Below are positions 1-33,930 of a DNA stretch of 53,510 nucleotides, one piece after another (positions within the stretch are counted from its first letter, which is position 1; each line of letters starts with the position of its first letter). Both the position numbers and the translations under genes were made by a program. Under the pieces are notes generated by a model. The model saw nothing but the letters and a program-made list of their open reading frames with translations, did no database searches and was not told where the DNA came from. The stretch covers positions 1-53,510 of the forward strand of contig JACRCE010000013.1 in the NCBI GenBank assembly GCA_016213015.1, given 5' to 3'. Source of the stretch: Deltaproteobacteria bacterium. Lineage in GTDB: Bacteria > Desulfobacterota > GWC2-55-46.

Positions 1-1100
1 ACAATCGGCGTTGGCGAGCCAGTGCCGCTCGTGGCGTCGTCCCACCTGCCAGAGGCGAGGTGCGGGTTATGACAGGTGGTGCACTCGACGGCGTAATGAA
101 CGTTTATAGGCGTAGCCGCGTCTGCATGGTAGTATGATGTCTTGCCGGTCTGTTCAGAGTCTTTTACCGGATGATGGCAGGTCTGTTCGAAGGCGGCCTT
201 TATACTGGTCTGGCCCGCATATCCATTATAGGTGGCAAGGTCGTTGTTAATAACCGGACTTCCGTCATGGCAGGTGAAGCACAGGTCTTCCGCGTCAACC
301 GGGTCCCGGCCTGATACGTTGGGCCATGTCGTTATCGGCGAGGTGGAGGGGTTTTTGTTGTTTATGTCCGCAAGCTCGACAAGTTGTTTGGGATACGGCG
401 TACCCGTTGACGCGGTTACTTCGCTTGAGCTGTACGGATAGCCATGAGGCGTGTGGCAGTTTACGCAGGTTCCGGCCTCCCACGAGGACTTTGCCGGATA
501 GGTCGAGCCGTATTGTCCGCCGGGCCACTGGACCGGGTTACGGCCCCCGGGCGGCGCAAAGTGCGCGGTTCCTTGGAACTTGGTTACGCCCTTGAAGCTG
601 TAGTCAAAAGGCGTGTCTCCTGTTATCCCGTTGGCGTCCGGGTCTGTTTCATTATGACAAAAACCGCACAGTTCGGTCCTTGTCCACTTGTCGTCATAGT
701 CTTTGAACAACAGATACTTGTCAGGGCCTGCCCCGGTTGCGCCGTGCGAACCCCAGTTCGGCACTGGTTCGTCTCCGCCGAACGAGGCGTGCGGCTCGTG
801 GCAGTGGTTACATTCGCCTGAAAGGTATTTGCCGGCTTCGTAGTTGGACGGGTCTTCGTAGGAGCCGGAGTAGTAAGGCGTGATCCTGCCGCGGTTGACG
901 CCTGTTACTCCGTCGGGGGAGTTGCCCGCGCCCGGGGCCGTGGTGCTCGATGCGCGATCAGGATACTGCGCGTCGGTTCCGCCATGCTCGGTTTGAGGAA
1001 AGACCCCGCCCGTTGCGTCAGCGTGTAATGGAAAAAGGATAATGACGGACAGGCTGAGAAGGATGCCTGAGAACAATGACCGGATGTTTAGAAGGTGCAT
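1..1100 (-). CDS. Multiheme c-type cytochrome, 3' end truncated by the window; paralog of 13527..15662
   Basis: Not in the ORF track. Manual minus-strand translation from ATG 1100 gives MHLLNIRSLFSGILLSLSVIILFPLHADA (signal peptide-like), then GKYLSGECNHCHEPHASFGG, and in-frame CGFCH, CVNCH, CFTCH and CTTCH (5 CxxCH within the window). An in-frame upstream ATG lies at 1214. Confidence 0.9.
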   Translation of the reverse strand, partial: MHLLNIRSLFSGILLSLSVIILFPLHADATGGVFPQTEHGGTDAQYPDRASSTTAPGAGNSPDGVTGVNRGRITPYYSGSYEDPSNYEAGKYLSGECNHCHEPHASFGGDEPVPNWGSHGATGAGPDKYLLFKDYDDKWTRTELCGFCHNETDPDANGITGDTPFDYSFKGVTKFQGTAHFAPPGGRNPVQWPGGQYGSTYPAKSSWEAGTCVNCHTPHGYPYSSSEVTASTGTPYPKQLVELADINNKNPSTSPITTWPNVSGRDPVDAEDLCFTCHDGSPVINNDLATYNGYAGQTSIKAAFEQTCHHPVKDSEQTGKTSYYHADAATPINVHYAVECTTCHNPHLASGRWDDATSGTGSPTPI

Positions 1101-1939: not shown

Positions 1940-2470
1940 CTACATGAAATATATCGTCGCCTTCACCTTGAGGGATATGTCGCCGCCCTCCTTCGCCCCT
2001 GTAAGGGATATATCCTCTATTACAATCGGGTATTTCGACGACTCGAGGCCGTAGATGAACCTCTTCAACTGAGCGTAGCCGCCTTCCATGGGAAACGAGA
2101 ACGTATACCTTGAGATGTCGGTGTCCTTTCCCGTCTCGGGCTTGTAATCACCCGAATCTATCTTGAGTCCGTTTCCTCTGGCCATGCCGAATATTTCGCC
2201 GAGTATTTTTGAAATGGCCTCTCGCTCCGGGAGCGTCTTTTTGAAGGCCGCCACTCCGACAGCCGCCCTCTCCGGAGACTTGGCCTTGCCGATTGATGAT
2301 CCCCTGAGTCCGTCTATGCGCTCTTCCAACGACGCTATCAGCGACTTCTGATGGTCTATGACCGTAAGCATGAAGACGACGTTCGCGGCGATAAGCGCCG
2401 CGGATACGACGAAAAGGAACAGCGTCAAAGGCTGCACCGACCTCTTTATGGATAAAAAAAGGCCGGTCAT
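1940..2470 (-). CDS. PilO/GspM-like alignment protein
   Basis: N-terminal TM helix, coiled coil, and FPMEGGYAQLKRFIYGLE motif typical of PilO. Confidence 0.8.
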   Translation of the reverse strand: MTGLFLSIKRSVQPLTLFLFVVSAALIAANVVFMLTVIDHQKSLIASLEERIDGLRGSSIGKAKSPERAAVGVAAFKKTLPEREAISKILGEIFGMARGNGLKIDSGDYKPETGKDTDISRYTFSFPMEGGYAQLKRFIYGLESSKYPIVIEDISLTGAKEGGDISLKVKATIYFM

Positions 2471-3021
2471 TGCCCCTCTTTCATGGAGTATCCCGCCGAA
2501 ACGGTAAAGAGCACCATCCCTCCCTTGTCCTCGGAATGTTTAAGGAGAAATACGTCCTTGAACCTCTTTGCTCGCTCCATCGTCTCCACCATCGCCAGCA
2601 CGTCGCTCATCTTCTTTGCCCGGCCGCCGACGGCCACCGAGCTTTTTTCGAAAACAGGGCTTATCCTCAGTATCTGTACGTTCCGCGGCACTCCGGCCTC
2701 GAGGTCGGTCAATAGCCCGGTCCATGACAAGGTCTTTCTGAGAATCAGTTCGTTTATGAACTCTATGTCTTTTGCAAGCATCTTCGGGTCAACGGGTTTA
2801 AGCGCCGCATGGTCTTGCTTGGCGGTTTTTTTTTCAAGGAGGTTCAAGTGAGCGTTGAGCCTTGTGATGCTTGCGCCGTTTGTCCTGTATGCGTCTATGT
2901 TGCCCCATGTGAAAAGAAGGGACAGGGCCAGGAGTATCGGCGCGGCTGTTTTAGCGGCCTTGCCTCCAGCGCCCATGCGCGTTGCGAGGTTTATGTTCGC
3001 GGGTATCTTCTTGTCTTTCAT
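2467..3021 (-). CDS. PilN-like alignment protein
   Basis: INLA motif, TM helix, and SWTGLLTDLEAGVPRNVQILRI; overlaps both neighbours by 4 nt. Confidence 0.8.
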   Translation of the reverse strand: MKDKKIPANINLATRMGAGGKAAKTAAPILLALSLLFTWGNIDAYRTNGASITRLNAHLNLLEKKTAKQDHAALKPVDPKMLAKDIEFINELILRKTLSWTGLLTDLEAGVPRNVQILRISPVFEKSSVAVGGRAKKMSDVLAMVETMERAKRFKDVFLLKHSEDKGGMVLFTVSAGYSMKEGQ

Positions 3022-3890
3022 ATCCCTGCACCGAGAGCGGCCAAAACCGCCACTTGGCTTTCTACATCGAGACTGAAGGCGTCGAGGCTTAAAAAGGCCG
3101 ATGCCTGCACCTCCTCCAACTCCGTATCGAGCGCGCTTTTTACCAGTTCCTTAAAGCCGTCCGTCGCGCCGAAGAGGCGGACCTTTTCAAGAGGCGAGCA
3201 TGATCTTTTTCCAATATGCGCCCTGTACGATAGAAACGACGCGCTGAGTTCCCTTGCCGCCCCGGAGGCCGGCGACTCCTTGCACCTGTAGTAGTCGAGA
3301 TGAGCGCCTGAGCAGATCATCACCGTGAAATGATCGTCTATGAACGTTATCACGGAAATATCCATGTTTGACTCCTTGCCGGCCAAAAGAAGGTTGAGTA
3401 GGTTTAAGGAATGTATGTTGATCCTCTCCGCATATAGACCGAGCGACCCTAAAGCGTCCTCGATCTCCCCGATGATATCCCTTTTGACGGCCACGGCAAG
3501 CACCTTAACGGTCTTGTCCCTTGACAGCGTATGATGGCTCAACTTGAAGTCGAGGAGGCTTAAGTTCAAGAACCTCCCCGCCTTGAGCCTTATCATCTCG
3601 TCCGCCTCGCTTTCCTTGGCGCTCAGATCATCGAGTTCCAGTATGACGACGTGCGCGAGATAGTCCGGTATCGAGACGGCTATGCCGCCTTTTTTTATCC
3701 CGGCCGCTATAACCGCTCTTTTCGCGCAATCGGCTAAGCCCGCGCCGGCGCGGGTATGCACACCGTGAGCCTTGCCTAATCCGGTCAAGACCCAGCCCGA
3801 CGAGCGTTTTTCCGCCGTAATGGCAACGGCGGCGCCCCCGAGGTAAAATCCAGCGGTTTTTTTTCCGGAGCCGTACATTGCCGTATTCAC
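3018..3890 (-). CDS. PilM/GspL-like cytoplasmic platform protein
   Basis: IAVSIPD and VLAVAVKRDII motifs; lies between the ATPase and pilN. Confidence 0.7.
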   Translation of the reverse strand: MNTAMYGSGKKTAGFYLGGAAVAITAEKRSSGWVLTGLGKAHGVHTRAGAGLADCAKRAVIAAGIKKGGIAVSIPDYLAHVVILELDDLSAKESEADEMIRLKAGRFLNLSLLDFKLSHHTLSRDKTVKVLAVAVKRDIIGEIEDALGSLGLYAERINIHSLNLLNLLLAGKESNMDISVITFIDDHFTVMICSGAHLDYYRCKESPASGAARELSASFLSYRAHIGKRSCSPLEKVRLFGATDGFKELVKSALDTELEEVQASAFLSLDAFSLDVESQVAVLAALGAGI

Positions 3891-5605
3891 TCCACGAATG
3901 TAACTCTGTTGATGTCCCTTAACGTAGTATCGCCCTTGATGACGCTTGCGACGGCGGCTTGCCTCAGCGTCAACATTCCGGAATCAACCGCCTTTTTCTT
4001 AAGAACGGACATGGGCGCCTTTGCGGCGATCATGTCCCTTATCTCGTCGTTTAAGTCGAGGAGCTCCACTACGGCCTTCCTGCCCCTGTAGCCGGTATTG
4101 TGGCACTCTGAACAGCCCGCGCCTTCAAAAAACGTCGCCTTGCCGCACCCGTCAGAGGAGATGCCGGATTTGTCAAGCTCCTCGGCGCTCAACTTGACGG
4201 GCCTTTTGCAGTTGTTGCATATAAGGCGTATGAGCCTCTGCGCGAGCACGCAGTTGAGCGAAGAAACGAAGTTGTACGGCTCGATCCCCATGTGTATGAA
4301 CCTGCCTATGACGTCGAAGACGTTGTTTGCGTGTACCGTCGTGAATACAAGATGCCCTGTGAGGGCCGCCTGTATCGCTATCTGGGCGGTCTCGGGGTCG
4401 CGTATCTCGCCGACCATTATCTTGTCCGGGTCGTGTCTCAGTATGGATCTCAAGCCCCTGGCAAAGGTAAGCCCCTTTTTCTCGTTCACCTGTATCTGGA
4501 CTATCCCCTTCAACTCGTACTCCACGGGGTCCTCGATCGTTATGATCTTGTCCTCGCCGGTGTTTATCTCGGATACCGCGGCGTAGAGGGTCGTGGTCTT
4601 GCCGCTCCCTGTGGGGCCGGTAACGAGGACCATGCCGTAAGGCTCCTTTATCATCCTCCTCAGGCGGGATACCTCCTTTTCGCCGAACCCGAGGCTCTCA
4701 AGCGTGAGACCCTCGACGTCCTTCGCGATATGCTCCTTGTCGAGTATCCTTATCACCGCGTCCTCGCCGTGAACGCACGGCATGATGGAGACCCTGAAGT
4801 CCGTGGTCTTGTTCTTGAACCTGACCTTGAACCTTCCATCCTGCGGGATCCTTCGCTCGGATATGTCAAGCTCGCTCATCACCTTTATCCTCGAGATGAT
4901 GCTCGCCTGGAATCTTTTGTCAACCGGATCCATCACCCTGTGCAGCACACCGTCTATCCTGTATTTGACGTTCAGGCCGTCTCTTCCGGATTCAAGGTGT
5001 ATGTCGCTGGCCCGTTTCGAGATGGCGTCGTAGATGATCGTGTCCACGAGCTTTACCACGGGGCTCGCGTCCTCGGCTATCTTTTCTATGGTCAGCGCCT
5101 CGTCGCTTTCCTCAACCTCAGTAAGTACCTCGGCGTTGAAGCCGTCGGCCGCCTCTTTCAATATCTTTACGGAGCCGCGGCCGCTGTTTAAGAGAGCGTC
5201 TATCGCGCCGGAAGATGCAACCGCCGTCCTTCCGGGGATCAGCCCGTTGCTTTTTATTATCCGCTCGACGTTGTCGAGCATGAGGACGTCCGTAGGGTCC
5301 GAGGTCAGGATAAAGGGTTCGCCGCCGCGTCTGACGGGTACGAGCCTGAACCTGTGCATGAGTTCGGACGGGATAAAATCAAGCATCTCCTCGTCTATCG
5401 CGACGCCCTCCTCGTCCACGGCGTCGAGGCCGTACTGAAGGGCAAGCGCTTTGGCAAGTTCCTTGCCGCTTATGAGCCCGAGCCTTATGCATGCCTCGCC
5501 GAAACGCACCCCCTCTTTTCCGGAGAAGGTCAAGACCTCTTCGATCTTGTTTTCCTCCAGCGCCGCCATGCCGACGAGTATCTCTCCTATTTTTTTAAAT
5601 GTCAT
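3887..5605 (-). CDS. gspE: Type II secretion/pilus assembly ATPase (GspE/PilB family)
   Basis: ASDIHLE, Walker A GPTGSGKTT, TIEDPVE, LRHDPDKIMVGEIRD, and CxxC...CxxC zinc site. Confidence 0.95.
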   Translation of the reverse strand: MTFKKIGEILVGMAALEENKIEEVLTFSGKEGVRFGEACIRLGLISGKELAKALALQYGLDAVDEEGVAIDEEMLDFIPSELMHRFRLVPVRRGGEPFILTSDPTDVLMLDNVERIIKSNGLIPGRTAVASSGAIDALLNSGRGSVKILKEAADGFNAEVLTEVEESDEALTIEKIAEDASPVVKLVDTIIYDAISKRASDIHLESGRDGLNVKYRIDGVLHRVMDPVDKRFQASIISRIKVMSELDISERRIPQDGRFKVRFKNKTTDFRVSIMPCVHGEDAVIRILDKEHIAKDVEGLTLESLGFGEKEVSRLRRMIKEPYGMVLVTGPTGSGKTTTLYAAVSEINTGEDKIITIEDPVEYELKGIVQIQVNEKKGLTFARGLRSILRHDPDKIMVGEIRDPETAQIAIQAALTGHLVFTTVHANNVFDVIGRFIHMGIEPYNFVSSLNCVLAQRLIRLICNNCKRPVKLSAEELDKSGISSDGCGKATFFEGAGCSECHNTGYRGRKAVVELLDLNDEIRDMIAAKAPMSVLKKKAVDSGMLTLRQAAVASVIKGDTTLRDINRVTFVE

Positions 5606-5674
5606 AGGCTCAAACCTTTTACATGTCTTTCCGTCCCGCCGCTTTGACGCAAAATCAAGCCGTCCGTCCGGTTC

Positions 5675-6874
5675 TCATACCCTCGACCCGAGTTGGAATA
5701 TGGGCAGGTACATGAGCACCACGATAGCGCCTATGATAAGGCCCATGATCAGCATCAGGGCGGGCTCAAGCAGGTCGGTAAGTATCCCTACCCTGTGGCT
5801 TACCTCCTGCTCATGAAAGTCCGCAATTGCCTCGAGGATGCCCGGAAGACCGGCCGACTTCTCCCCGACGCTGAACATCCTCAGGGTTATATCAGGCAAC
5901 AGCCCCTCTCTCGATATCGCCTCGGTGACGGACTCTCCCTCCTTCGTCTTTTTTATCGCCCTGGAGAGCTTCTCTTCCATAACCGCGTTGTTCAGCACGC
6001 CCTTTGCCGTCTCAAGGCTCTCTATGAGCTGAATGCCTGAGTTGAGCACCATGGCGAGCGTCCTTGCGAACTTGGCTATCGCGTATCCCGTGTATATATA
6101 GCCGACCTGCGGCATCTTGAGCTTGATGCCGTCGATATAGAATCTAGCGGCCCGGTTCCGGTACGCATAACGCGCAATGAACGATAGAGAGGCTGTAAGC
6201 ACGACTATCCACAGGAGATTGCGCTTCAAAAACCACGAGAGGTTTATCAATATCCGCGTGGGAAGCGGCAGTTCTCCTCCGGTCTCCATGTATATCTCGG
6301 TAAAGGAGGGCACCACGTAACTTAGGAGAAAACCGATTACGACCATGCTCGCCGTTGCAAGCACGGCCGGATATATGGCCGCTGACACTATCTTCTTCCT
6401 TATCGCCTCGGTTTTTTTCTGAAACTCGATATAGCCCTTTATGGACGGGACAAGGTCTCCAGTGCGCTCTCCGGCGGCTATTGCCGCGGTATACATCTCT
6501 GGAAAAACCGACGGGTTTTTCCTCATGGCCTCCGAGAGGCTCTGCCCGTTCTTTATCCCGGCCGCGGCGTCCGCTATGGCCGATGCAAGATGCGCATTCT
6601 TCTGGCTTTTCATCAGAGTCTCAAGGCCGTCCAACACGGGCAATCCGGCCTTAAGGAGGGTGAAAAACCCGTAATTAAAGACAAGGAAGTCCCCGGACTT
6701 AACCTTTCCGGCGCGCTTGAGAACCGGAAAAGAAAACCCCTTCCGACTTACCGATATAGGGAACAGGCCCTCTTTTTCAAGCTCTATCAGGAGGGCTTCC
6801 CGTGTAGACGCCTCGATATGTTTCCGAATGATCTTGCCGTCAAGCGTGCCCGCCCTTACCTTGAATGTAGTCAT
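5675..6874 (-). CDS. gspF: Type II secretion inner-membrane platform protein (GspF/PilC)
   Basis: Two T2SSF repeats (AGERTGDL; VGEKSAGL), AAIYP, and LEPALMLIMG...MYLPIF. Confidence 0.95.
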   Translation of the reverse strand: MTTFKVRAGTLDGKIIRKHIEASTREALLIELEKEGLFPISVSRKGFSFPVLKRAGKVKSGDFLVFNYGFFTLLKAGLPVLDGLETLMKSQKNAHLASAIADAAAGIKNGQSLSEAMRKNPSVFPEMYTAAIAAGERTGDLVPSIKGYIEFQKKTEAIRKKIVSAAIYPAVLATASMVVIGFLLSYVVPSFTEIYMETGGELPLPTRILINLSWFLKRNLLWIVVLTASLSFIARYAYRNRAARFYIDGIKLKMPQVGYIYTGYAIAKFARTLAMVLNSGIQLIESLETAKGVLNNAVMEEKLSRAIKKTKEGESVTEAISREGLLPDITLRMFSVGEKSAGLPGILEAIADFHEQEVSHRVGILTDLLEPALMLIMGLIIGAIVVLMYLPIFQLGSRV

Positions 6875-6886
6875 GGCCAGTCGCCT

Positions 6887-7402
6887 CTACTTCTTTTCCG
6901 CCGGCCTCGCAGCCGGCGCCGCAACAGGCACGTAAATGAACGCCCATTCGCTGTATTTCGTCTTGCCCTCAAGTCCCTGAAGCGCCTGTGAAAAGCCTTT
7001 CCTCTTATATGCGTGCCTTGCGCTCCTGCTCTTTACGCCCATGATCCCCCCGTCAGCGGCCTTTATAAGCTCCCAGTCGGCCTTGCCTGTCATGGGGTCC
7101 GTATAGAGCTTCCTCAAATGCTTTTTTACAACCGGCCACCTTTTGTCGTTAATGAGGTCTTCAAGCGTCCTTGGGTAGGTCTTCGCCCCGGGGCTCTCCT
7201 CGTAATAACCGCCTATGGCCTTTCTTATCTGATCCCCCTTGAATAAAAGCTCCGCCTCCTTCTCCCTCTTGGCGGCCGTGCTCCACACCTGCCCCGCCGA
7301 GGCGAGGGCTATCCCCATTACCGTTATCATGAAGAGCGCCGTCAGGTACGTGAACCCGCCGTTGTCCGATAAGCTGCAAGCGCGTCCCATCTGTTTTACC
7401 AC
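6887..7402 (-). CDS. Minor pseudopilin
   Basis: GFTYLTALFMI prepilin-like N-terminus, KREKEAELL, YPRTLEDL and LRKLYTDPMTG. Confidence 0.85.
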   Translation of the reverse strand: MVKQMGRACSLSDNGGFTYLTALFMITVMGIALASAGQVWSTAAKREKEAELLFKGDQIRKAIGGYYEESPGAKTYPRTLEDLINDKRWPVVKKHLRKLYTDPMTGKADWELIKAADGGIMGVKSRSARHAYKRKGFSQALQGLEGKTKYSEWAFIYVPVAAPAARPAEKK

Positions 7403-8254: not shown

Positions 8255-8271
8255 GGTGTAACCTTTAAGCC

Positions 8272-10515: not shown

Positions 10516-10534
10516 AATCACAGCTGTAATCTCT

Positions 10535-19580: not shown

Positions 19581-19597
19581 CTCCAAATTAGCCGCCG

Positions 19598-25600: not shown

Positions 25601-28600
25601 GCATCGCAATCGGCGGGGCTTCATGGATACCGGGCAGGAACGGCCAAGGCTATGCCCTTGATCTGGACGGCTCCAGCGGCTACGTGAGCGTGTCCGAGTG
25701 CGGCGACACCCCTCTTGACCTGATCAACAAAGGCACCTTCGAGTTCTGGCTGAAGAAAGACAGCCAGCCATGGAGTACCACGCGCATTGTCAGCAAGGGG
25801 GATGGGACTGTAACACCCGACTATCCGCGCGGCACATTAGGCTACGATTTCTATACGTACAGCAGCAGTGGCGTGGGGCTGAGTCTGACATGGGGCGGCG
25901 AGGGCGGCTCCAGCTCTACCTACAGCGATCCCTATCTGGACATTAACGGCGAGTGGAGGCACGTCGTTGCAACTTATGACGGAGGAAACGCCAGGTTCTA
26001 CGTGGACGGCCAACCGGTCGGCGCCGGCGGCATGTCAGCAGGCGGAGTGAAAAGCAATGCCCCGGTCCTGTTCGGCGTTGACAGCGGCCTGACCAGCTAT
26101 CTGGACGGCGCGATAGACGAGGCCATCATTTACAACAGGGCGCTTACCGGCGACGAGGTGAGGGAGAGCTCCGGAATCCCCTGGAAGATGAAGACAGCGG
26201 TTGCCTACGACATGGGCGGCGCAAGCGGCATACAGACAACGGACAAGGTCGTCATAACCTTTGACGGCCCGACCCAGGCAAACAGCATAAACGCGGGCAA
26301 CATAGACGCCGTATTGAGCCTGTCAAACGGCCATACGTGGAAGAGCGGCAACGGCGGCCTGGGAAACGCGGCATGGAGCACAAAGACGTTCACAAACGAC
26401 ACATTGACGATTATTTTCAGCGATGCTGGCGGCGCGCCGAATGCAGCGGTCGGCGACACCATCACCCTTGACGGCGTTACCATAACCGACCACAAGGCCC
26501 GTCCGGTCCCGGTCGGTTCGGTCGTCGTTTCAGGCACATTCGGCCCGCTCTCCGCTGATATTGTCGGTTACTGGAACTTTACCGAGGGGAGCGGCACAGC
26601 CGCCAACGACTCTTCCGTCTACGGCAACCACGGCGCTCTCAGGGGTGACGCAGGCTGGACAACGGGCCAGGCCGACGGCGCCATATCGCTTGACGGCAGC
26701 GGCGCTTACGTCAACGTCAATGACTCCAATTCATTAGATCTCTCGACACGCGAGTACTACGCCATAAAGGCGCTTTCATCCACAAAGGCCTGGGCCGTGG
26801 GCCAGAGCGGCGCCATTGCGGAAGGCACGCGCACGGGCACGGACTTTAACCTGAACTGGACGGCTTCTTCCTCCAGCCCGACTACGAACCATCTCTATTC
26901 AATAGACTCGGCCTCGGCCACGGAGATGTGCGCGGTCGGCATGAACGGCACGATACTCTGGTACAACGGCTCGTCGTGGGGGGCTTCGTCTTGGACGAGC
27001 CCGGTCACGACAGACCTCTATTCAGTAGATATGCTCTCGGCTACGAGCGGCTGGGCCGTGGGCAAGAACAACGTCATCATCCGGTTCAACGGCTCAACAT
27101 GGTCGCAGGTATCCATAAGCTCGCCCACCGCTACGTGGTCGCTCAAGTCCGTGAAGATGCTGTCCGCCTCCGAAGGCTGGGCGGTCGGCGGCGACAACAT
27201 CGCCACGGCAGTAATCCTCAAGTGGAATGGAACCAACTGGACGGAGTTCTATACGACCACGGCCATCAACATGCTCAATTCCATTGACATGCTCTCATCC
27301 ACCGAGGGCTGGGCAGTGGGGATCAGCGGCAAGATATTGAAGTTTGACGGGACAAGCTGGACGGAATTCACAAGCCCGACGCCTTATGACCTCTATTCAG
27401 TGAAGGCAATCTCAACCACGGAGGCGCTGGCCGTGGGGGCGAACAGGACCATCCTGAAGTTCAAGGACACGGCATGGACAATCAACTCCAATATCGCCGA
27501 GGTTACAGGCTATCCTATTCTCAGGTCGGTGGAATCGTATATCCTGAACCCCACAGAGATATACTACTCTGGAGGCATCCCATACATTGAAGAAAAGAGA
27601 TGGGAGTACGCGGCCGGAGACGCCAGCACGATAATAGAGCACAGCGCAGGGACATTCCTGTCCGGCTCCCAGGCGGGGCAGGATACAGATTATTCATGGC
27701 ATGGCCGCGACGCAGGCGGCTACGGCGGCGCGACCTTTGAGGTATGGGCGTGGAAGAACTCCAACAAGTACGACCAGACCTATCTGGCCAAGCAGTACCC
27801 TGACTCCACCGCCGCCGCCCCGATAAACTACAGGGTCAAGGACGAAGGCAGCACGGGCAAGCCCGCCTTTACAGTGGGCAGGGATTCGAACCAGGCAAAC
27901 CCGGTTGTCTGCTCCGACGTTGCTCCGGTGGGTCAGTGGAACCATATCGTCGCTACAGGCACATCCACCCTGAAGATATACCTGAACGGCCAGCTCTGCG
28001 GCACGGGTACAGCCGGTCCGAGAGGCACGAGTTCTACATACCCGCTGGTGATAGGCACGGGGTATTACGGAGGCGCTGATTTCGACGGCAAGATAGACCA
28101 TGTAACCATCTATAACCGGACGCTCTCCGGGGACGAGGTGTGGGCCAAATACGGCTCCAACTCCGTAAGCTTCAAGAGCGCCGTGGCGGACGACAACAGC
28201 AGCGGCGGCTCCGGCATACAGGCCGGAGACAAGGTAATCATAACCTTTAACGGGCCCACACAAGGTACAGCCGTCTCCTCCGCCAATATCAACACAGTCC
28301 TGAACGCGGCTGGCAAGACATGGCTTGACGGGAACGGCGGCGTTTCAGCCGTGTGGAGCACAACCGCCTTCACCAACGATACCCTGACCATAACGCTAAG
28401 CGCCACAGGCGGGGCGCCAACCGTAGCCGTGGGCGATACCATAACCTTGAGCGGCCTATATGACTCCCTCGGCAGGGCCATGACCGGCACGATTGCCGTA
28501 GCCGGAAGTTTCGGGACCGACACCTACGGCTGGACACTCGACACCTACTCGGAATGGACGGCAGGGTCCCTCATATCCGCAAAGCCCGCCAAAGACAACT

Positions 28601-31600
28601 GCGTGGAGCTTCAGAACTGGGACGTCCACACCCGTGAGATCAGGGGCGTTGACATGCTTTCGCCGACCGAGGGGTGGGCAGTGGGCGCAAATGGCGCTAT
28701 CCGCAGGTGGGACGGCACGAAGTGGAAGGTATTCCCAAGTCCCATAGACTCCTCCGTCGGTTCCACGACGTGGCCCGCCGGTCTCTACGGCATAGACATG
28801 CTCTCATCCACGCTCGGCTGGGCGGTCTACGCCAACACGTCGTCCGGCTTGGGTAAGATGATCAGGTTCGACGGGACCAGGTGGTCCGAGGAGACAATCC
28901 CCTCTGGCACACCATCCCTCTATGTGGTGAAGATGTTATCGTCTACCGACGGCTGGGCCGCTGGAGCCAGCGGCACGATGCTCAGATATGACGGCGCGAG
29001 CTGGACCGCAGCCACCAGCCCGACGACCAGCGCCATTTATGCCATAGACGGCGTCTCTTCAAACGAAATATGGGCGGCAGGCTCAACCGGGACATCGATC
29101 TTCAAGTGGAACGGTTCAAGCTGGACGACCTACACGCTCCCCGCCTCGGCGAGCATCCGCTCCATCCACATGCTCTCTGCCTCCGACGGCTGGGCAGTGG
29201 GGAGCGGCGGCAAGATATTCAGATACAACGGCTCAAGCTGGTCTTCCGTAACCAGCCCGACGACGACCGCCCTCTACTCTGTGCGGATGGTCTCGTCCAC
29301 GGATGGATGGGCAGTGGGCGGCGTAGCAGGCAGCGGCAGCGTCATCCTGCGCTGGAACGGCTCTACATGGAGTACTTACAACACGTACGCGTCGGTGAGC
29401 TATCTCTATGCGGTCAACATGCTCTCCACAACCGAGGGCTGGGCCTTGGGCTATGATGGGGCAATATTCAGATGGAACGGAAGCGCGTGGTCGGAATACG
29501 CCGGGGTCTACAGCGATTACATCTGGGATATGGTGTTTGCCTCAGACACCGATGGATGGGCAATCAGTCAGAGCGGAAAGATGCTCAGGTACAACGGCGC
29601 GGAATGGACCACTTACGCCAGCCCGACAACCAATTTGCTTTTTGCCATAGACACGGTCTCGGCCAACGAGGCCTGGTTCGCTGGGCCGAACGATTACTTC
29701 TGGAAATACCTCAACGGCTCATGGACGTCCGTTGCCAACGGGAGCGGCAAGTGGATGTTCGGCATTGACATGCTCTCCTCCTCCGCGGGATGGGCAGTCG
29801 GCTACGGGATAGCCAGGTGGGACGGCGCGAGTTGGTCGGGCGTCGCAAGCCCTACGGCCAACGTCCTGAATTCCGTCAAGATGTTGTCTTCCACCGAGGG
29901 GTGGGCGGTCGGCAACAGCGGCACTATCATCAAGTGGGACGGCGCGAGCTGGACAACGGTTGCAAGCCCCACAACACAGACTCTCACGGCCATTGATATG
30001 GTTTCTTCAACAAAGGGCTGGGCGGTTGGATACGACAATGCTACCAATAACGGGATCATGCTTGAATATAACGGCGTATCGTGGTCAATGCTTACTCTCC
30101 CAACTCCGACGACAACGACGATCGGCGCGCTGAGAGACATCAGGATGAGGTCGTCCACAGAGGGCATCGCGGTCGCAGGCAGCACAATGCTGGCCTATGA
30201 CGGGACGTCATGGAAATATAGCCAAACTCCGACGGACGCCTCATACGCTGTTGCCTATACGCCTTCGGGCACGCCGTGGACCGCTGGATACGCTACCTTC
30301 ATGGAAAGGGTCGATTACTTCCCAACAGGCACGGTTACCAACAGCCTTGACGCGGGGTCAGCGGTCTACTGGACAAACAGCAGCTTCTCAGCGACCCAGC
30401 CCGCCGGGACATCGGTCGCCTTCAGATGGGCCACGTCCGACGATAATGTCAACTGGTCGGCATGGACAACCAATTTCGCTTCACTTGCAAGTAGCAGGTA
30501 CATAAGGCAGGAGGCGACCCTCTCCACAGCCAATGCAACTGTCACCCCGTCGTTGTGCAGTACAACGGTAGGATATAACACAACACTGTCCCCACCCAAT
30601 CCGCCGACCATCGGGGCGGCGACAGGGTTGTCGGCCACATCCATCCGGTGGAACTTCACGGACACCGCCAACAATGAAACCGGGTTCAAGCTCCATGACG
30701 CAGACCATGCGGTCAAGGCAAGCTCCGCAACGCCGAACCTGACATACCTCGACGAGACGGGGCTTACGGCCAATACCCAGTATACGCGGCACGTGCATGC
30801 GTACAATGCTGTAGGCGATTCAGCGGGAAGCGGCGATGCGACAGGATATACCCTCGCGGCGTCACCGGATGTGACGCCGAGCAGGGCTGCTTCCTCATGG
30901 TCGAACAACGCGAACCTGACCTTTATGAACGCAGCCGGGTTCGGCGCGGGGGGTGTTCAGTACTACCGTTACGCATGGGATCAGACGGCTGCCCATACCT
31001 TTACCGGCGCTGAGACCCAGTGGACGAGCGGGACACTCACGACCGCTGCAACCGTGTCAGGAGGCTGGTATCTCCACCTCAAGTCGTATAACGCCGCAGA
31101 CGCGGGGGGCAGCGCCCAGGATTACGGGCCGTTTAACTACGAGACAACCGCCCCTGGTCAGGTAACGGGGTTGTGGTCTTCCCCGGCCTCGCCAACCTCC
31201 GCCAACATGGGCTGGACCGCTACTTCCGACACGGGCGGCAGTGGATTGGCCGGGTATAAGGTGGAAAGGGCCATTGACATAAGCGGCAGCCCGGATACGT
31301 TTGCCCAGGCAGGGACAACAACCTCCAACACCTGGTCCGACACTGTGCTCCTTGCCAACGCCAGGTTCTGGCACAGGGTAAGGGCCTACGACAACGCCGG
31401 AAACAACGGGGCATATTCCACCGCCGTTTCCGTCATGACCCTCCCCGTGACTCCGAATGTGACATCCGACAAGACGGCTTCGACATGGTACAACACAACA
31501 GATGTGGTATTCACCAACGCCGCCGGGTTCGGCGCAGGCGGGGTGCAGTATTACAGGGCGGCATGGGACCAGAGCGCAACCTATACCTTTACCGGGACCG

Positions 31601-33930
31601 AGACCCAGTGGAGTTCCGGGACATTGACGGGAACAGCCACAGCGGACGGAAGTTGGTATCTGCACGTCAAGTCGTTCAACGGCGACAATATCGCAAATGG
31701 AACACAGACCTACGGGCCGTTCTATTACGACGGTACCGCTCCGACCGGGCATGGAAATTCATCCCCTGCCGACGGCGCCACGGGACAGGCAACCACAACT
31801 ACGCTAAGCTCCACCATTGCCGTTGACGGCGTCAGCGGCGGGGTGCAGTATTACTTCCAGTTGGCCGCAAACAGCGGCTTTACCACGGGCGTCCAGACAA
31901 GCGGATGGCAGGCGGGCACGAGTTTTACCCCGGTTCTCGCGGGCAGTACGACCTACTATTGGCGCGTAAAGGCAAGGGACGCGGCGCTCAACGAGACGGC
32001 CTACACGGCCACATGGTCGTTTACCAGCGTCATCTTTGTGATCCCCGCAACCCCGACAATAGGCGCGCCTGCGGCATTGTCCGCTACGTCAATCAGGTGG
32101 AACTTCATTGACAACGCCACTGACGAGGAAGGGTTCAGACTCCACGATTCGGGCCACGTAGTTAAGGCAAGCGCGGCAACGCCTAATCTTACTTACCTCG
32201 ACGAGACAGGGCTTACGGCCAACACCCAGTACACGCGGCACGTACATGCTTATAATGCCGCAATGGGGGATTCCATAGGGAGTCTCGACGCTTTGACGTA
32301 CACCTTGTCGGCGTCTCCGAATGTAACATCCGACAAGACGGCCTCGACATGGTACAACACAACGGACGTGGTATTCACGAACGCCGCCGGGTTCGGAGCG
32401 GGCGGTGCGCAATACTACCGTTACGCATGGGATCAGAGCGCGACATACGCCTTTACCGACGCGGAAACCCAGTGGACGACCGGGACATTGACAATGACCG
32501 CAACGGCCGAAGGCGGTTGGTATCTGCATGTCAAGTCGTTCAACGGCGACAATATCGCCAATGGGATCCAAACCTACGGGCCGTTCTATTACGATATAAC
32601 CGCTCCGACAGGGCTTGCCAATTCTTCCCCTGCCGACGGAGCGACCGGTCAGCCGACCGGCGCCGCCGTAACTTCCACCGTCGCGGCCGACAGCGGCAGC
32701 GGCGGGGTGCAGTATTACTTCCAGTTGGCCGCGGACAGCGGCTTTACCTCAGGCGTCCAGACAAGCGGATGGCAGGCGGGCACGAGCTTCGCCCCGGTCC
32801 TCGCGGCCACTACGACCTACTACTGGCATGTGAAGGCACGAGACGGCGTTCTCAATGAGACGCCCTATACCGCCGCGTGGTCGTTTACCACAGTAGCAGC
32901 AACAACGACACAGATGGGCGGGGCCATACAAGGCGTGTCCCTTAGCCTTACAACCGCTGTAACGACCCTTGCGGGATCGGCGGGACTCAATGGTTCAACG
33001 GACGGGACAGGTTCCGCCGCATTGTTTAATTACCCAGCCGGCATAACCACTGACGGGACAAACCTTTATGTGGCTGATTTCAGTAATCGCACAATCCGCA
33101 AGATAGTTATATCGTCCGGCGCTGTAACGACCCTTGCGGGCTTGGCCTTGACTTCCGGCTCAACGGACGGGACAGGTTCCGCCGCAAGGTTTAATTTCCC
33201 TTTCGGCATAACCACTGACGGGACAAACCTTTATGTGGCGGATAGATCTAATAGCACAATCCGCAAGATAGTCATATCCACGGGAGTTGTCACGACCCTT
33301 GCGGGCACAGCCGGGAGCACCGGTTCAGCGGACGGGACAGGTTCCGCCGCAAGGTTTAATAACCCTTACGGCATAACCACTGACGGGACAAACCTTTATG
33401 TGGCGGATACCCTTAATCGCACAATTCGCAAGATAGTCATATCTACGGGAGTTGTAACGACCCTTGCAGGCACAGCCGGGAGCACCGGTTCAGCGGACGG
33501 GACAGGTTCCGCCGCAAGGTTTAATCGCCCTTACGGCATAACCACTGACGGGACAAACCTTTATGTGGCCGATACCTATAATTACACAATCCGCAAGATA
33601 GTCATATCCACGGCCGTTGTAACGACCCTTGCAGGCACGGCCGGGAGTTCCGGTTCAACGGACGGGACAGGTTCTGTTGCTCGGTTTTATTACCCTCAAG
33701 GCATAACCACGGACGGGACAAACCTTTATGTGGCCGATACCTATAATATGACAATCCGCAAGATAGTCGCATCAACGGCCGTTGTCACGACCCTTGCGGG
33801 ATCGAGCCCCGGTTCAGCGGACGGGACAGGTTCCGCCGCAAGGTTTTATAACCCTACCGGCATAACCACGGACGGGGCAAGCCTTTATGTGGTTGATACC
33901 GATAATTTCACAATCCGCAAGATTCAGTAG
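19633..33930 (+). CDS. Giant (4765 aa) secreted multiheme cytochrome with LamG, beta-propeller, FN3-like and NHL modules
   Basis: Signal peptide ending AYA. The first ~815 aa carry 15 CxxCH plus CX6CH and CX4CH. Then 4 LamG domains (W(T/N/R)HxxAxYDG, DEx3YNRAL), 5 GIQAGDKVV repeats, MLSSTEGWAVG propeller repeats, FN3-like TYYWRVKARD modules and 6 terminal NHL repeats. Confidence 0.95.
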   Translation: MTTCNTHIKGYLLLSIILAVCLMGLYHAYADDGNILRRTNKGDDTCGGAANACHNVKVHNSVNTGSLKWSGSGGWGIEGGRYGKFVCQTCHTPHNTNNIYLIREKIKFPDASVMPSGQVETPVDYRYKSATVGTPEADYAKGNDDVSASGRTAGNGQPATSSRPCEVCHSQTKYHRYNTESQTGGYNHNNAKDCVKCHSHQKGFAHAYGAGGGKLDVCIQCHGHDPGYTFSYTSMDGTTTSTITSEGRGNYRVHSTHTENDADDKRGPNVFCTTCHDPNNMPTFKSGTDMDGNGLFTLNETDVCAQCHSEGGFYNGVNSDAATGSVGVKENFKATNGDYARGGVYDTLSTYTTYTGSAGLPPVIVYDSDGTLKTGKEKWCAGCHDDAPPTINGKTAPIIAGDSSTYGFFVNGHGKESGNYNKLSWQDSAATGNPAAQRKCYQCHDTTFTHIGNSDSGTPRNKRLKWWDTTEYNNKTCKQCHDDENAGAVATAEPKWYTTYAGWQSSAHGSTAKGNLECTKCHEPHGMGGTNKPAMTRELRENLCYNCHTGDTGSWMNVVNNAISGPTTATSIEQAFGLAGTKHPVAEYKAFQKDGLTYNLTCISCHNVHLVTGRYWEADQGKSPLTRFSNKTAVWGDKAGEKMSDFAGSGTYETPLYDVELGSNFRANVMPDYPSFCLDCHSSFGGSGYETSGIEWNNNPHGKGQAGVPNQYGGHNYWTVGMQGFDAITPGFKAKRGRGGRDFNYAPWDPERRYAGANFTLACVNCHEVHGSNQNRMLRPEIGSGNPCIECHFDKSENMGGGLFGCGSASCHQTTDIHRLAVGQNTSGVTAIFDREHTVDIRFESVRGGSDGANGFADATTSFSHARLLDMGNKSPLIMVSATGSIGSDQVTVIFSKGVYTDMGSTGALVASDFTLTDTDNSRTITGVSHTAGGTTAVLTLSAPLDDVSDIGVDTIAAATGTSIYDELDIPMSATGVIITATSLAIKSIVASDSAGADGIQAGDKVVLTFYQPTQGNAINASNIDTALALWPFHTWKDGSGNIGSAAWNNPTNDTLTITLSAAGGVPTVASADAVTIDGTIKTLAGAGITESALISGTFDVAGSFGGLLAGGSACYAGGWSCETCDWLSTVASVQARVVPGKVGNAVQLDGNQCVEVGTDSCYSSTGTARATASAYEWKKTGTVEAWIYPTELTATRYVIASNELDNYYNYSLEITNDSTDTENGQPAVFTDYRLVFRFHTPTARAVYSSLTVPVNQWTHVAAVYDADAYDGKVVKIYMNGKDVTGVTTYSYGRLFSQPPSGTLLYPSSGANSSNTQELMIGCDPGIIDYRPGYSYGLRPFAGFKGKIDEFNLWNIARTPDQIAQDCGAPRIVSATGAIGSAQVTVTFSEGVYTSTGATGALLPSDFALTDTDNSRTITGVSHTAGGTTAVLTLSAPLDAVSDIDVDTLAAATGSSIYDAGDIPMDTRATVITGVSPSIRSVIASDAGGANGIQAGDKVVIKFYQATQGNTIDNGNINTALALPNGHTWNDWSGNIGSASWNSPTNDTLTITLSATSGVPTVAPGDMVTLGGTIKSSGGADMIDAHVISGTFDAGNFGGLPSGAVAYYNMVEGAGLTAHDTSGNGNDATLKNGVAWTGGRAGTVPNNAVSLNGGNNFLEAPDSNSLDLTDQGTIEVWAKKNSNRTYQAYVGKYAFSGSPLDYYGYMLGDANGQISLRWGRPQISERDPWVSGTDYYEPEVKGADYRYYKAGPEDSLISDCETAPVGQWNHILATYDGATMKIFLNGRLIKTGSYVKAAVANPYPLRIGASGSGGDSSYENALDGAVDEAVVYNRALTNDEARERFGAAVQPSGAIASDVGGADGIQTGDKVVVKFDGPTNGAVTTANIGTVLSLNNGHSWGAVQSAVWSTKVFSNDTLTVTLSSGATIDKGDVITTDGTVIKDRKGNAISATVSVSGRFSPLSSGVVAYYDFNEGTGNVVHDLTPNGLDGIAIGGASWIPGRNGQGYALDLDGSSGYVSVSECGDTPLDLINKGTFEFWLKKDSQPWSTTRIVSKGDGTVTPDYPRGTLGYDFYTYSSSGVGLSLTWGGEGGSSSTYSDPYLDINGEWRHVVATYDGGNARFYVDGQPVGAGGMSAGGVKSNAPVLFGVDSGLTSYLDGAIDEAIIYNRALTGDEVRESSGIPWKMKTAVAYDMGGASGIQTTDKVVITFDGPTQANSINAGNIDAVLSLSNGHTWKSGNGGLGNAAWSTKTFTNDTLTIIFSDAGGAPNAAVGDTITLDGVTITDHKARPVPVGSVVVSGTFGPLSADIVGYWNFTEGSGTAANDSSVYGNHGALRGDAGWTTGQADGAISLDGSGAYVNVNDSNSLDLSTREYYAIKALSSTKAWAVGQSGAIAEGTRTGTDFNLNWTASSSSPTTNHLYSIDSASATEMCAVGMNGTILWYNGSSWGASSWTSPVTTDLYSVDMLSATSGWAVGKNNVIIRFNGSTWSQVSISSPTATWSLKSVKMLSASEGWAVGGDNIATAVILKWNGTNWTEFYTTTAINMLNSIDMLSSTEGWAVGISGKILKFDGTSWTEFTSPTPYDLYSVKAISTTEALAVGANRTILKFKDTAWTINSNIAEVTGYPILRSVESYILNPTEIYYSGGIPYIEEKRWEYAAGDASTIIEHSAGTFLSGSQAGQDTDYSWHGRDAGGYGGATFEVWAWKNSNKYDQTYLAKQYPDSTAAAPINYRVKDEGSTGKPAFTVGRDSNQANPVVCSDVAPVGQWNHIVATGTSTLKIYLNGQLCGTGTAGPRGTSSTYPLVIGTGYYGGADFDGKIDHVTIYNRTLSGDEVWAKYGSNSVSFKSAVADDNSSGGSGIQAGDKVIITFNGPTQGTAVSSANINTVLNAAGKTWLDGNGGVSAVWSTTAFTNDTLTITLSATGGAPTVAVGDTITLSGLYDSLGRAMTGTIAVAGSFGTDTYGWTLDTYSEWTAGSLISAKPAKDNCVELQNWDVHTREIRGVDMLSPTEGWAVGANGAIRRWDGTKWKVFPSPIDSSVGSTTWPAGLYGIDMLSSTLGWAVYANTSSGLGKMIRFDGTRWSEETIPSGTPSLYVVKMLSSTDGWAAGASGTMLRYDGASWTAATSPTTSAIYAIDGVSSNEIWAAGSTGTSIFKWNGSSWTTYTLPASASIRSIHMLSASDGWAVGSGGKIFRYNGSSWSSVTSPTTTALYSVRMVSSTDGWAVGGVAGSGSVILRWNGSTWSTYNTYASVSYLYAVNMLSTTEGWALGYDGAIFRWNGSAWSEYAGVYSDYIWDMVFASDTDGWAISQSGKMLRYNGAEWTTYASPTTNLLFAIDTVSANEAWFAGPNDYFWKYLNGSWTSVANGSGKWMFGIDMLSSSAGWAVGYGIARWDGASWSGVASPTANVLNSVKMLSSTEGWAVGNSGTIIKWDGASWTTVASPTTQTLTAIDMVSSTKGWAVGYDNATNNGIMLEYNGVSWSMLTLPTPTTTTIGALRDIRMRSSTEGIAVAGSTMLAYDGTSWKYSQTPTDASYAVAYTPSGTPWTAGYATFMERVDYFPTGTVTNSLDAGSAVYWTNSSFSATQPAGTSVAFRWATSDDNVNWSAWTTNFASLASSRYIRQEATLSTANATVTPSLCSTTVGYNTTLSPPNPPTIGAATGLSATSIRWNFTDTANNETGFKLHDADHAVKASSATPNLTYLDETGLTANTQYTRHVHAYNAVGDSAGSGDATGYTLAASPDVTPSRAASSWSNNANLTFMNAAGFGAGGVQYYRYAWDQTAAHTFTGAETQWTSGTLTTAATVSGGWYLHLKSYNAADAGGSAQDYGPFNYETTAPGQVTGLWSSPASPTSANMGWTATSDTGGSGLAGYKVERAIDISGSPDTFAQAGTTTSNTWSDTVLLANARFWHRVRAYDNAGNNGAYSTAVSVMTLPVTPNVTSDKTASTWYNTTDVVFTNAAGFGAGGVQYYRAAWDQSATYTFTGTETQWSSGTLTGTATADGSWYLHVKSFNGDNIANGTQTYGPFYYDGTAPTGHGNSSPADGATGQATTTTLSSTIAVDGVSGGVQYYFQLAANSGFTTGVQTSGWQAGTSFTPVLAGSTTYYWRVKARDAALNETAYTATWSFTSVIFVIPATPTIGAPAALSATSIRWNFIDNATDEEGFRLHDSGHVVKASAATPNLTYLDETGLTANTQYTRHVHAYNAAMGDSIGSLDALTYTLSASPNVTSDKTASTWYNTTDVVFTNAAGFGAGGAQYYRYAWDQSATYAFTDAETQWTTGTLTMTATAEGGWYLHVKSFNGDNIANGIQTYGPFYYDITAPTGLANSSPADGATGQPTGAAVTSTVAADSGSGGVQYYFQLAADSGFTSGVQTSGWQAGTSFAPVLAATTTYYWHVKARDGVLNETPYTAAWSFTTVAATTTQMGGAIQGVSLSLTTAVTTLAGSAGLNGSTDGTGSAALFNYPAGITTDGTNLYVADFSNRTIRKIVISSGAVTTLAGLALTSGSTDGTGSAARFNFPFGITTDGTNLYVADRSNSTIRKIVISTGVVTTLAGTAGSTGSADGTGSAARFNNPYGITTDGTNLYVADTLNRTIRKIVISTGVVTTLAGTAGSTGSADGTGSAARFNRPYGITTDGTNLYVADTYNYTIRKIVISTAVVTTLAGTAGSSGSTDGTGSVARFYYPQGITTDGTNLYVADTYNMTIRKIVASTAVVTTLAGSSPGSADGTGSAARFYNPTGITTDGASLYVVDTDNFTIRKIQ
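32959..33927 (+). repeat. Six 165-bp intragenic NHL tandem repeats
   Basis: gt(a/c)acgacccttgc recurs at 32959, 33124 and onward with a 165-bp period (55 aa). Confidence 0.95.

Follow-up and report, generated by a model that had tools for sequence, protein, structure and literature searches.

A porin-less operon of predicted secreted cytochromes and beta-propellers beside an atypical type II secretion-like cassette in a Desulfobacterota genome

The cassette and the divergent operon

We analyzed a stretch of 53,510 nt from Deltaproteobacteria bacterium (GCA_016213015.1; 2.27 Mb in 117 contigs, an estimated 98.7% complete) that comprises one entire contig, JACRCE010000013.1 (C53 among the contigs of this genome; hereafter the window). 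Two gene sets diverge in its left part. Leftward runs a cassette for a machine resembling type II secretion systems (T2SSs), which ends in a multiheme cytochrome gene at the contig end; rightward runs a series of genes for cytochromes and beta-propeller proteins, here called the cargo. An earlier sequence-only reading of this DNA had described the same divergent gene content, and all of the genes are indeed present. It had also taken the two sets for a dedicated, co-regulated export machine and its cargo. Our results point instead to an accessory island that probably came to lie beside an older cassette.

All genes of the cassette are on the minus strand. The first encodes a secretin lipoprotein (8272-10161; lipobox ...ISGC) with TPR, STN, Secretin_N and Secretin domains by Pfam and NCBIfam (PF00263). 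It is followed by three prepilin-type genes of 157 amino acids (aa) (7781-8254), 148 aa (7396-7842) and 171 aa (6887-7402), the last with T in place of E at mature position 5. The prepilin N-methylation domain PF07963 (N_methyl) was matched in two of the three, and the remaining one was read by eye; GspG was matched weakly among them. Next come a GspF/PilC-type platform protein (5675-6874; PF00482, 5.7e-52) and a GspE/PilB-type assembly ATPase with an N-terminal MshEN domain of the cyclic di-GMP-binding type (3887-5605; PF00437, 1.4e-130; PF05157, 1e-11). PilM-like (3018-3890; TIGR01175 pilM at 7e-04, below its cut-off), PilN-like (2467-3021; PF05137, 2.1e-05) and PilO-like (1940-2470; PF04350, 1.1e-06) genes follow, with 4-nt overlaps between neighbors. 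The tenth gene (1376-1891) encodes 171 aa with an N-terminal membrane helix and occupies the place of PilP in pilMNOP operons. It had no match in Pfam or NCBIfam, and homologs stand at the same position in six of the eight cassette-bearing relatives described below, including G036 (locus L012).

The cassette unites a secretin, N-methylation prepilins, a PilB/GspE ATPase and a PilC/GspF platform protein in one operon, as expected of a machine of the type IV filament superfamily (T2SS/T4P-like). The family-specific models scored lower: the secretin reached 168 bits with the GspD model (cut-off 351) and was also under the PilQ and MshL equivalog cut-offs; the ATPase reached 524.5 bits with GspE (cut-off 630) and was also under that of PilB; the platform protein reached 305.6 bits with GspF (TIGR02120, cut-off 424); and pseudopilins reached 48.9 and 44.7 bits with GspG (cut-off 88.85). 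PilM/N/O-like genes stand in place of a GspC/GspL/GspM platform, the GspM model giving 17.5 bits against a cut-off of 60. Because the components fall under the GspD/E/F/G and PilB/PilQ equivalog cut-offs, we classify the cassette, from its domains and model scores, as a type-IV-filament machine of atypical T2SS kind and not as a canonical Gsp system. The first pseudopilin has 1,838 homologs, Betaproteobacteria included, hence the machine appears to be widespread; source names among the top 120 of these 1,838 were GspG/GspH-like only.

The intergenic region between the two gene sets (10162-10654, 493 nt) is AT-rich and holds one sigma-70-like site facing each way (plus strand, 10487-10515; minus strand, 10259-10232). 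It had no Rfam match and no sigma-54 -24/-12 site. That the two promoter-like sites are separate, with neither a riboswitch nor a sigma-54 site in common, tells against an exporter that is co-regulated with its cargo.

The cargo genes are all on the plus strand, with intergenic spacings of -14 to +52 nt. The first encodes a protein with DUF7948 and an SBBP beta-propeller (10655-13540, alternative start 10574; PF25778, 2.3e-46; PF06739, 5.5e-28); its signal peptide ends in ...IFAAC and it may be a lipoprotein, its score with the LipL53-type SBBP lipoprotein model being 72.6 bits, under the cut-off. It is overlapped by 14 nt by the gene for a 711-aa cytochrome with nine CxxCH and one CxxxCH motif (13527-15662; hereafter the 10-heme protein). 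An 87-aa monoheme protein (CKECH) with a signal peptide (15683-15946; weak PF00034, E 0.0035, below cut-off), a 427-aa six-bladed NHL propeller with an extra C-terminal domain (15956-17239; PF01436, 4.2e-16; PF17170, 4.8e-14) and a 488-aa 5-heme cytochrome (17265-18731) follow. The last gene (19633-33930) encodes a secreted fusion protein of 4765 aa, hereafter the giant, with a heme domain and Laminin_G_3, fn3/Ig-like and NHL domains. There are 32 heme motifs in the cargo operon.

All 15 CxxCH motifs and the single CxxxxCH motif of the giant lie within residues 87-811, in a 16-heme domain of aa 1 to ~830. Behind it come four Laminin_G_3 domains, propeller-like repeats (~aa 2440-3560) and fn3/Ig-like domains, and the C-terminus is an NHL propeller (~aa 4440-4765). 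A PDB sequence search with the propeller-like middle (aa 2440-3600) returned 0 matches. The heme domain has 799 representative homologs at E ≤ 1e-3, the best being a protein of 1,941 aa with 51% identity. This family is sparse and mostly metagenomic, and many members are 1,000-4,000 aa long and carry Big_5, LamG or beta-helix domains in the same chain.

Between the 5-heme and giant genes lies a toxin-antitoxin (TA)-like pair on the plus strand: an 82-aa open reading frame (ORF; 18761-19009) and a 194-aa nucleotidyltransferase of DUF6036/AbiEii type (18996-19580), with PF19502, PF09970 and PF08843 as the pair's Pfam matches. The pair is bracketed by a 59-nt direct repeat (18672-18730 and 19587-19645, 88% identical) that duplicates the 3' end of the 5-heme gene and whose second copy includes the ATG of the giant gene; its GC content is 0.47, as against 0.58-0.59 in the neighboring genes. 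We read the pair as a later insertion, before which the 5-heme and giant genes probably overlapped.

Apart from the TA-like pair, every cargo product begins with a leader that runs from positively charged through hydrophobic to an A-x-A-type end when read by eye, in agreement with the Sec-type signal peptides proposed from the sequence. Likewise, neither an MtrB-like porin nor a quinol oxidase was recognized in Pfam scans of the window's ORFs, a dedicated barrel predictor not having been run, and the only outer-membrane channel proteins in the window are the secretin and the OEP of an RND efflux system (51297-52604). The right-hand genes are thus supported as a single operon for cytochromes and propellers that are putatively exported by Sec, a porin gene being absent from the window by these scans, and this part of the sequence-only reading stands, while the dedicated and co-regulated T2SS does not.

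A further proposal, that the proteins build a heme-wired appendage or nanowire, found nothing in its favor. The 10-heme protein, the 5-heme protein and the heme domain of the giant had no cytochrome match in a phmmer search against all PDB chains (E ≤ 1, sequence only), and this lack of homology to nanowire or MtrC-type cytochromes also argues against a dedicated export machine. The DmsE/MtrA family model TIGR03508 has a cut-off of 192.2 bits, and the scores obtained with it were 19.4 and 20.7. A complex prediction of the NHL protein (aa 40-330) with the 5-heme protein (aa 33-488) and four hemes gave run values of 0.01, 0.35 and 0.00, which count neither way.

Linkage in relatives and the tRNA-Pro boundary

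Forty relatives from the same genus, family and order were examined, with 20 kb fetched around each secretin. The secretin is present in eight of them at 50-67% identity (G008, G016, G020, G024, G026, G032, G033 and G036), a ninth (G010) has a 38% match, and the ranking of identities among the relatives follows taxonomy. Five carry the full 10-gene cassette (G008, G016, G020, G032 and G036); contig ends truncate it in G026 and G033, the gene order being that of the window in all seven, and G024 has only the secretin and three pseudopilins at the site. The highest GspE identity in the congeneric G001 is 42%, compared with 63-72% in the cassette-bearing relatives. The operon of SBBP, cytochrome, NHL and giant genes stands beside the cassette in none of the eight. 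Conserved linkage of T2SS and cargo had been set beforehand as a test, and its absence is the first of the results that contradict 'dedicated', 'co-regulated' and 'machine plus cargo'.

The upstream neighbors of the cassette are a CysN-like GTPase in G016, Rho in G033, GcpE in G026, and DUF389 and MmeI in G020. Where flanks are readable, its neighbors are housekeeping or defence genes in all relatives but G036. We consider it probable, as part of the interpretation given below, that the cassette is an old component of the order, vertically inherited and usually placed among housekeeping genes.

The cargo families follow another distribution. The 10-heme family occurs in ten of the 40 relatives, eight of which have no secretin at E ≤ 1e-30; among the secretin-less ones are G025, G027 and G039, each 98-100% complete, and in G032, which has both, secretin and 10-heme homolog are 167 kb apart. 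These genomes argue against a dedicated exporter and for a 10-heme family that is maintained without the cassette. Relatives of the SBBP protein (31-43% identity) occur in seven of 40 and never adjoin the cassette. The 830-aa heme domain of the giant had no match at E ≤ 1e-15 in the 40 relatives; it was found in three of 400 phylum genomes (even sample, E ≤ 1e-25), and none of the five loci fetched from these three contains T2SS genes. The 5-heme protein was found in two of the 400. On contig C36 of the distant genome G066, a 917-aa NHL protein is followed by a 340-aa 4-heme homolog with 50% identity to the 5-heme protein, amid unrelated genes.

Immediately downstream of the giant gene lies a decayed tyrosine integrase in two overlapping frame fragments on the plus strand (33979-34278 and 34253-34591; PF00589, 2.9e-12 on the second). 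The second fragment covers positions 86-169 of the PF00589 model, its C-terminal half only, and a RHSLAT...LGH stretch is visible in the remnant. A tRNA-Pro(GGG) gene on the minus strand (34608-34684) faces this remnant with its 3' end and forms the right island edge; beyond it come MerR, IHF, pheT, pheS, rplT, infC and thrS. In G020, from the same family but another genus, we found the same frame in the same orientation, with the cassette followed by DUF389 and MmeI and then by tRNA-Pro(GGG)-MerR-IHF-pheT. Because the same frame has other content there, albeit in this one relative, we read the stretch from cassette to tRNA-Pro as a variable slot; its content in the window is a cytochrome island of 24 kb whose tRNA edge carries a dead integrase. 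The slot in G020 (L007, 13251-17275) contains DUF389 and a restriction-modification gene of MmeI type instead.

The integrase and tRNA boundary, the slot in G020 and the lack of linkage in all eight cassette-bearing relatives tell against a dedicated machine. Therefore, we favor, with moderate confidence, the interpretation that the cargo is a tRNA-linked accessory island beside an old, conserved atypical T2SS, and that their adjacency results from integration and not from co-evolution.

Several observations weigh against this interpretation, including some of the metagenomic loci described in the next section. No att repeat of tRNA-Pro longer than 10 nt was found in the window at the far island edge, and GC content at third codon positions in the cargo (0.70-0.73) is inside the genome range (0.674 ± 0.066); hence the event would be old, or the operon would be ancestral and lost elsewhere. 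The latter alternative to an old transfer is less parsimonious, as every one of the 40 relatives sampled would have had to lose the operon. It is also conceivable that the integrase remnant stems from another element that has since disappeared. In G001, the contig ends at pheT and the site is not readable there. Lastly, the localization of every protein is a prediction.

At the other end of the window, the multiheme cytochrome gene behind the cassette (3-1214, minus strand) runs off the contig; the N-terminal 404 aa are present, with five CxxCH motifs so far. A 161-nt gap separates it from the 171-aa gene, and its true start is likely M39 at about position 1100. The protein is a distant member of the 10-heme family and shares 93% identity over 354 aa with a 1,008-aa paralog on contig C86. 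Sequence left of position 1 lies outside the window, which is a whole contig; contigs C21 and C13 have at their ends the same 141 nt with which the window begins, and both continuations are in frame (1027 aa via C21, 485 aa via C13). We considered whether this cytochrome is ancestral to the cassette and dropped the idea, because it is about 31% identical to its counterpart in G036 but 93% identical to the paralog on C86.

An assembly chimera at the divergent junction was likewise dropped, because a Logan contig of 6,988 nt, built independently by another assembler, spans 4825-11812 and bridges the junction between T2SS and cargo genes. The run behind that contig contains 97% of the stretch and may be the source sample, so that it verifies the assembly and not the biology. 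The left ~1.1 kb are a repeat and are less secure, with raised depth and variants; the Logan contig over the T2SS genes begins at 1131.

Other features of the window concern neither gene set. A dispersed repeat of ~145 nt lies at the right contig end (53366-53510), with further copies at 38379-38453, 35524-35577 and 41269-41323; the genome has well over 100 copies, many at contig ends. An ordinary RND efflux operon (TetR - OEP - HlyD-type adaptor - AcrB) occupies 47044-53229 on the minus strand. A perfect sigma-54-type site, TGGCAC-N5-TTGC (44760-44774, plus strand), lies 54 nt upstream of a gene for a cytoplasmic-type molybdopterin oxidoreductase (44828-46816); the window has six sigma-54 -24/-12 sites where 3.6 are expected, which is chance level. 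Rfam recognized two tRNAs and no other family across the window.

Cytochromes beside the cassette family and candidate export routes

A contig scan with a single secretin query gave only two loci, and we therefore used a metagenome scan based on an alignment of eight secretins. It yielded 99 stretches with a relative, and 80 loci were retained, each with flanks of at most 10 kb. At least one locus duplicates a genome already in the set (L041 = G032), and a flank of 2 kb or longer, on one side or both, is available at only 45 of the 80. ORFs with at least three CxxCH motifs were found in the available flanks of eight loci; the other 72 show none, a further point against an exporter dedicated to cytochromes. 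By script, a multiheme ORF lies within 2 kb of the cassette at four of the 80 loci (L032, L089, L094 and L107), and reading by hand added L042, where cytochromes adjoin the cassette. Together with G036, these loci place multiheme cytochromes beside the cassette family in four other lineages (G036/L032, L042, L094/L107 and L089). By script, the density of multiheme ORFs near the cassette is 0.026 per kb, compared with 0.018 per kb in the far flanks and about 0.010 per kb in the genome that carries the window (22 ORFs in 2.27 Mb); this excess is weak and based on small, partly dependent numbers.

In G036 (L011/L012), the cassette is followed by a 708-aa cytochrome with nine CxxCH motifs and then by two genes with FGE-sulfatase domains; upstream of the secretin, Pfam recognized a 1,304-aa beta-helix/fn3 protein and a 454-aa Ig-like protein. 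L032 stems from a sister species, with secretins 80% and cytochromes 89% identical, the cytochrome thus being the better conserved. Before its cassette lie a protein of at least 1,526 aa, cut by the contig start, and one of 437 aa, and its contig is cut after the cytochrome. At L042 (1539-12304), one strand carries NHL, 4-heme, 7-heme, GspF and GspE genes, four small genes and a 785-aa TPR secretin of the same family, the cytochrome genes thus being part of the cassette operon. L094 and L107 have the same cytochrome protein 431 nt after the secretin.

Such arrangements are what a dedicated, co-evolved and co-regulated exporter would lead one to expect, with the secretin replacing a porin and the cargo forming a heme-wired surface structure. 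A cytochrome follows the cassette both in the window and in G036/L032, where it is preceded by large proteins (beta-helix/fn3 and Ig-like in G036) and where the arrangement has been kept across two species; in L042, the GspF-GspE-...-secretin series comes immediately after genes for an NHL protein and two multiheme cytochromes; and L094/L107 place a multiheme cytochrome directly behind the secretin. The direct divergent adjacency in the window, across a shared 493-nt control region, and the lack of a porin there in Pfam scans add to this. Set against the missing linkage in relatives, the secretin-less 10-heme genomes, the integrase and tRNA boundary and the many metagenomic loci that show no cytochrome, this explanation seems improbable to us.

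The terminal cytochrome of the window is only ~31% identical to the G036/L032 cytochrome, and the recruitments of cytochromes to the side of the cassette therefore look independent. Independent recruitment is a mild argument for functional attraction; it hints at a functional tie between cassette and cytochromes that is underplayed when the cassette is viewed as a mere neighbor. A reading built on this, to which we assign a low probability, is that the cassette family, with its three pseudopilins and TPR secretin, is a specialized exporter of very large or heme-loaded surface proteins that repeatedly captured cargo genes (in the window, G036/L032, L042 and L094/L107). If true, the cassette would here take over from the beta-barrel of nanowire- or porin-type clusters, provide electrical contact without a porin and place a cytochrome-adhesin of 4,765 residues on the cell surface.

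Paralogs of the 10-heme protein lie on contigs C7, C17, C95, C89 and C86 of the same genome. The paralog on C7 is accompanied by two propellers of ~330 aa of YNCE/lactonase type (Pfam). Those on C17 and C89 are followed by genes for 277-306 aa that look FGE-sulfatase-like by eye (VPAGEFVMG-type N-termini) and that adjoin genes for proteins of 1,498-1,667 aa. We noted that the ~710-aa 10-heme family on C7, C17, C89 and C95 (L121) has fixed partners and often stands beside secreted proteins of 1,300-1,700 aa, and that the same two-gene tails follow the family in the relatives G001, G002 and G029. Another cluster, on C13 (L117, 1892-8426), encodes 26-heme and 16-heme cytochromes, a SurA-like peptidyl-prolyl isomerase (PPIase), an NHL propeller and a 3-heme protein, and no barrel was recognized in it by Pfam. 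The genome has four secretins, with GspE/GspF paralogs on C71, C46 and C115; C71 holds a Gsp-like, complete-looking secretin/GspE/GspF set, and other secretins are on C30 and C46. C115 also encodes a NapC/NirT tetraheme protein, and C62 and C102 encode c7-type cytochromes.

From this gene content we infer localization, electron path and exporter as follows. Sec-exported cargo would receive its hemes in the periplasm. Electrons would reach the 10-heme, monoheme and 5-heme proteins from a quinol dehydrogenase of NapC/NirT type and from small c7-type cytochromes. The SBBP and NHL propellers may serve as scaffolds or anchors for the cytochromes; this is the best-supported of the proposed roles, because cytochromes and propellers are paired elsewhere in the genome, an NHL gene precedes a homolog of the 5-heme gene in G066, and heme and NHL domains are fused in the giant. 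The lectin-like, fn3 and propeller domains of the giant would hold the cell to a surface, with the 16-heme end as the electrical contact. Going by Shewanella and Geobacter, folded holo-cytochromes would cross the outer membrane through a machine of T2SS type, no other passage being known for them here; the genome offers at least two candidates, the neighboring cassette and the Gsp-like set on C71. On our analysis, the odds that the neighboring cassette exports the cytochromes are close to even.

Consistent with the second candidate, the cassette may be uninvolved: the cargo would be exported by the Gsp-type T2SS on C71, or would remain periplasmic or attached to the inside of the outer membrane and pass electrons to conduits elsewhere, such as the C13 cluster with its 26- and 16-heme proteins, PPIase and propeller. 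The complete-looking set on C71, the further secretins on C30 and C46 and the relatives that keep the 10-heme family without the cassette all speak for this explanation. A lectin-like/fn3/propeller protein of 4765 aa is, however, hard to imagine as periplasmic, and the adjacency of cassette and cytochromes in other lineages, sporadic as it is, recurs. On balance, we regard it as a possible but unlikely account.

Least probable is a non-respiratory operon, in which the giant would be mainly an adhesin or matrix protein and the hemes would serve redox sensing, oxidant or metal detoxification, or iron/heme storage: about 3,900 of the 4,765 residues of the giant are in non-heme adhesin-type domains, Pfam scans found no quinol oxidase or porin in the operon and homologs of the heme domain are fused to passengers as varied as Big_5, beta-helix and GEVED, but the number of heme motifs in one operon, of a paired-CxxCH type typical of electron-transfer chains, and the ties of clusters of cytochromes and NHL proteins to extracellular electron exchange in the literature (PMC5815863, 10.1101/2022.05.06.490989, PMC13712944) speak against it.

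Known systems and the meaning of the locus

The route supposed here for the cargo is that of Shewanella MtrC and OmcA, folded multiheme lipoproteins whose surface display depends on a T2SS after Sec export and periplasmic heme attachment. In Shewanella, the MtrAB porin complex is the docking site of these cytochromes, whose genes are not linked to gsp. The window has neither of the features of such a porin-cytochrome conduit (MtrCAB/Pcc) that we looked for, a beta-barrel porin in Pfam scans and a decaheme protein of the MtrA/DmsE family. Likewise, of the features of omcE/omcS nanowire clusters, the combination of cytochromes with SBBP/NHL propellers is present, and homology of the three cytochromes to omcE/omcS/OmcZ subunits is absent at the level of PDB sequence matches (E ≤ 1).

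Among T2SSs, the closest comparison is with the atypical 'Pul' system of Geobacter. Pul has the pseudopilins PulG, OxpG and TklG; it is required to secrete OmpB, a multicopper protein, and to reduce Fe(III) and Mn(IV) oxides (Mehta et al. 2006, as cited; PMC3543383, PMC10599522, 10.1101/668343). Both are non-canonical T2SSs of cytochrome-rich deltaproteobacteria with three pseudopilins by the secretin, GspF and GspE, and in both genomes there is a second, Gsp-like system, as described for Geobacteraceae (PMC3543383). Differences are that the window has no multicopper oxidase gene and that the platform of the cassette is PilM/N/O-like. Of the pseudopilins themselves only the count of three matches, and the label 'OxpG-type' used in the sequence-only reading fits only by this count. 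GSU1785 and GSU1787 presumably lie beside the Geobacter pul genes, to judge by the locus numbering. Both are termed c-type cytochromes (PMC7962754, PMC10063792).

The 'e-pilin' aromatic thresholds of a preprint predict Geobacter OxpG to be conductive (10.1101/668343). The mature second pseudopilin of the cassette (7396-7842) is 10.3% F/Y/W and has no aromatic-free gap longer than 22 aa, in line with two of these thresholds (aromatic percentage and gap); its aromatic residues stand at positions 1, 24, 50, 51 and 57, with none at position 27.

The cargo finds its parallels in cytochrome/propeller clusters. Like the omcE-type clusters of Desulfuromonadia, it is a compact set of several multiheme cytochromes and beta-propeller (lipo)proteins and forms a variable insert between conserved housekeeping genes (PMC13712944); it differs in having no barrel in the window and in adding the 4765-aa fusion protein. 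In gene make-up, it is also akin to two clusters of Desulfovibrio ferrophilus IS5 (DFE_0448-0451 and DFE_0461-0465), which encode outer-membrane cytochromes and NHL propellers and have no porin gene, and for which the authors proposed that the propellers stabilize the cytochrome complex in place of a beta-barrel (PMC5815863, PMC9769857). Those clusters lack a giant fusion protein and are not described as neighbors of a T2SS. Fe(III) oxide reduction persisted in that organism after deletion of cytochromes or of pili (PMC9769857). A scaffold role of propellers was proposed as well for the Uet cluster (10.1101/2022.05.06.490989), which in 'Ca. Tenderia electrophaga' and Gallionella encodes an undecaheme cytochrome, smaller cytochromes, two NHL proteins and a PPIase (10.1101/2022.05.06.490989, PMC10734462). 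Cytochromes and NHL proteins are common to it and the window, and its PPIase is paralleled in the C13 cluster of this genome, which resembles Uet in composition; by contrast, its beta-barrel UetC, triheme c7 proteins and cupredoxin have no equivalents in the window. Collectively, these comparisons place the cluster with the known cytochrome/propeller clusters, as a variant that lacks a porin and has a cytochrome-adhesin-NHL fusion of unusual size.

The main result is one of caution: adjacency alone misled, and integration at a tRNA hot spot accounts best for the pairing of cassette and cargo. The passage of folded multiheme cytochromes through the outer membrane is a matter of continuing debate, and for the nanowires of Geobacter a 2026 paper sets a route resembling type IV pili and T2SSs against a porin-like one (PMC13712944). 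A barrel-less cytochrome/propeller operon beside a T2SS-like cassette is a natural test case in this debate, as are the lineages that carry cytochromes in or next to the cassette. The giant, for its part, joins in one chain the two partners of a common but unexplained pairing, multiheme cytochromes and NHL propellers, and this fusion lends the pairing support of the "Rosetta stone" kind.

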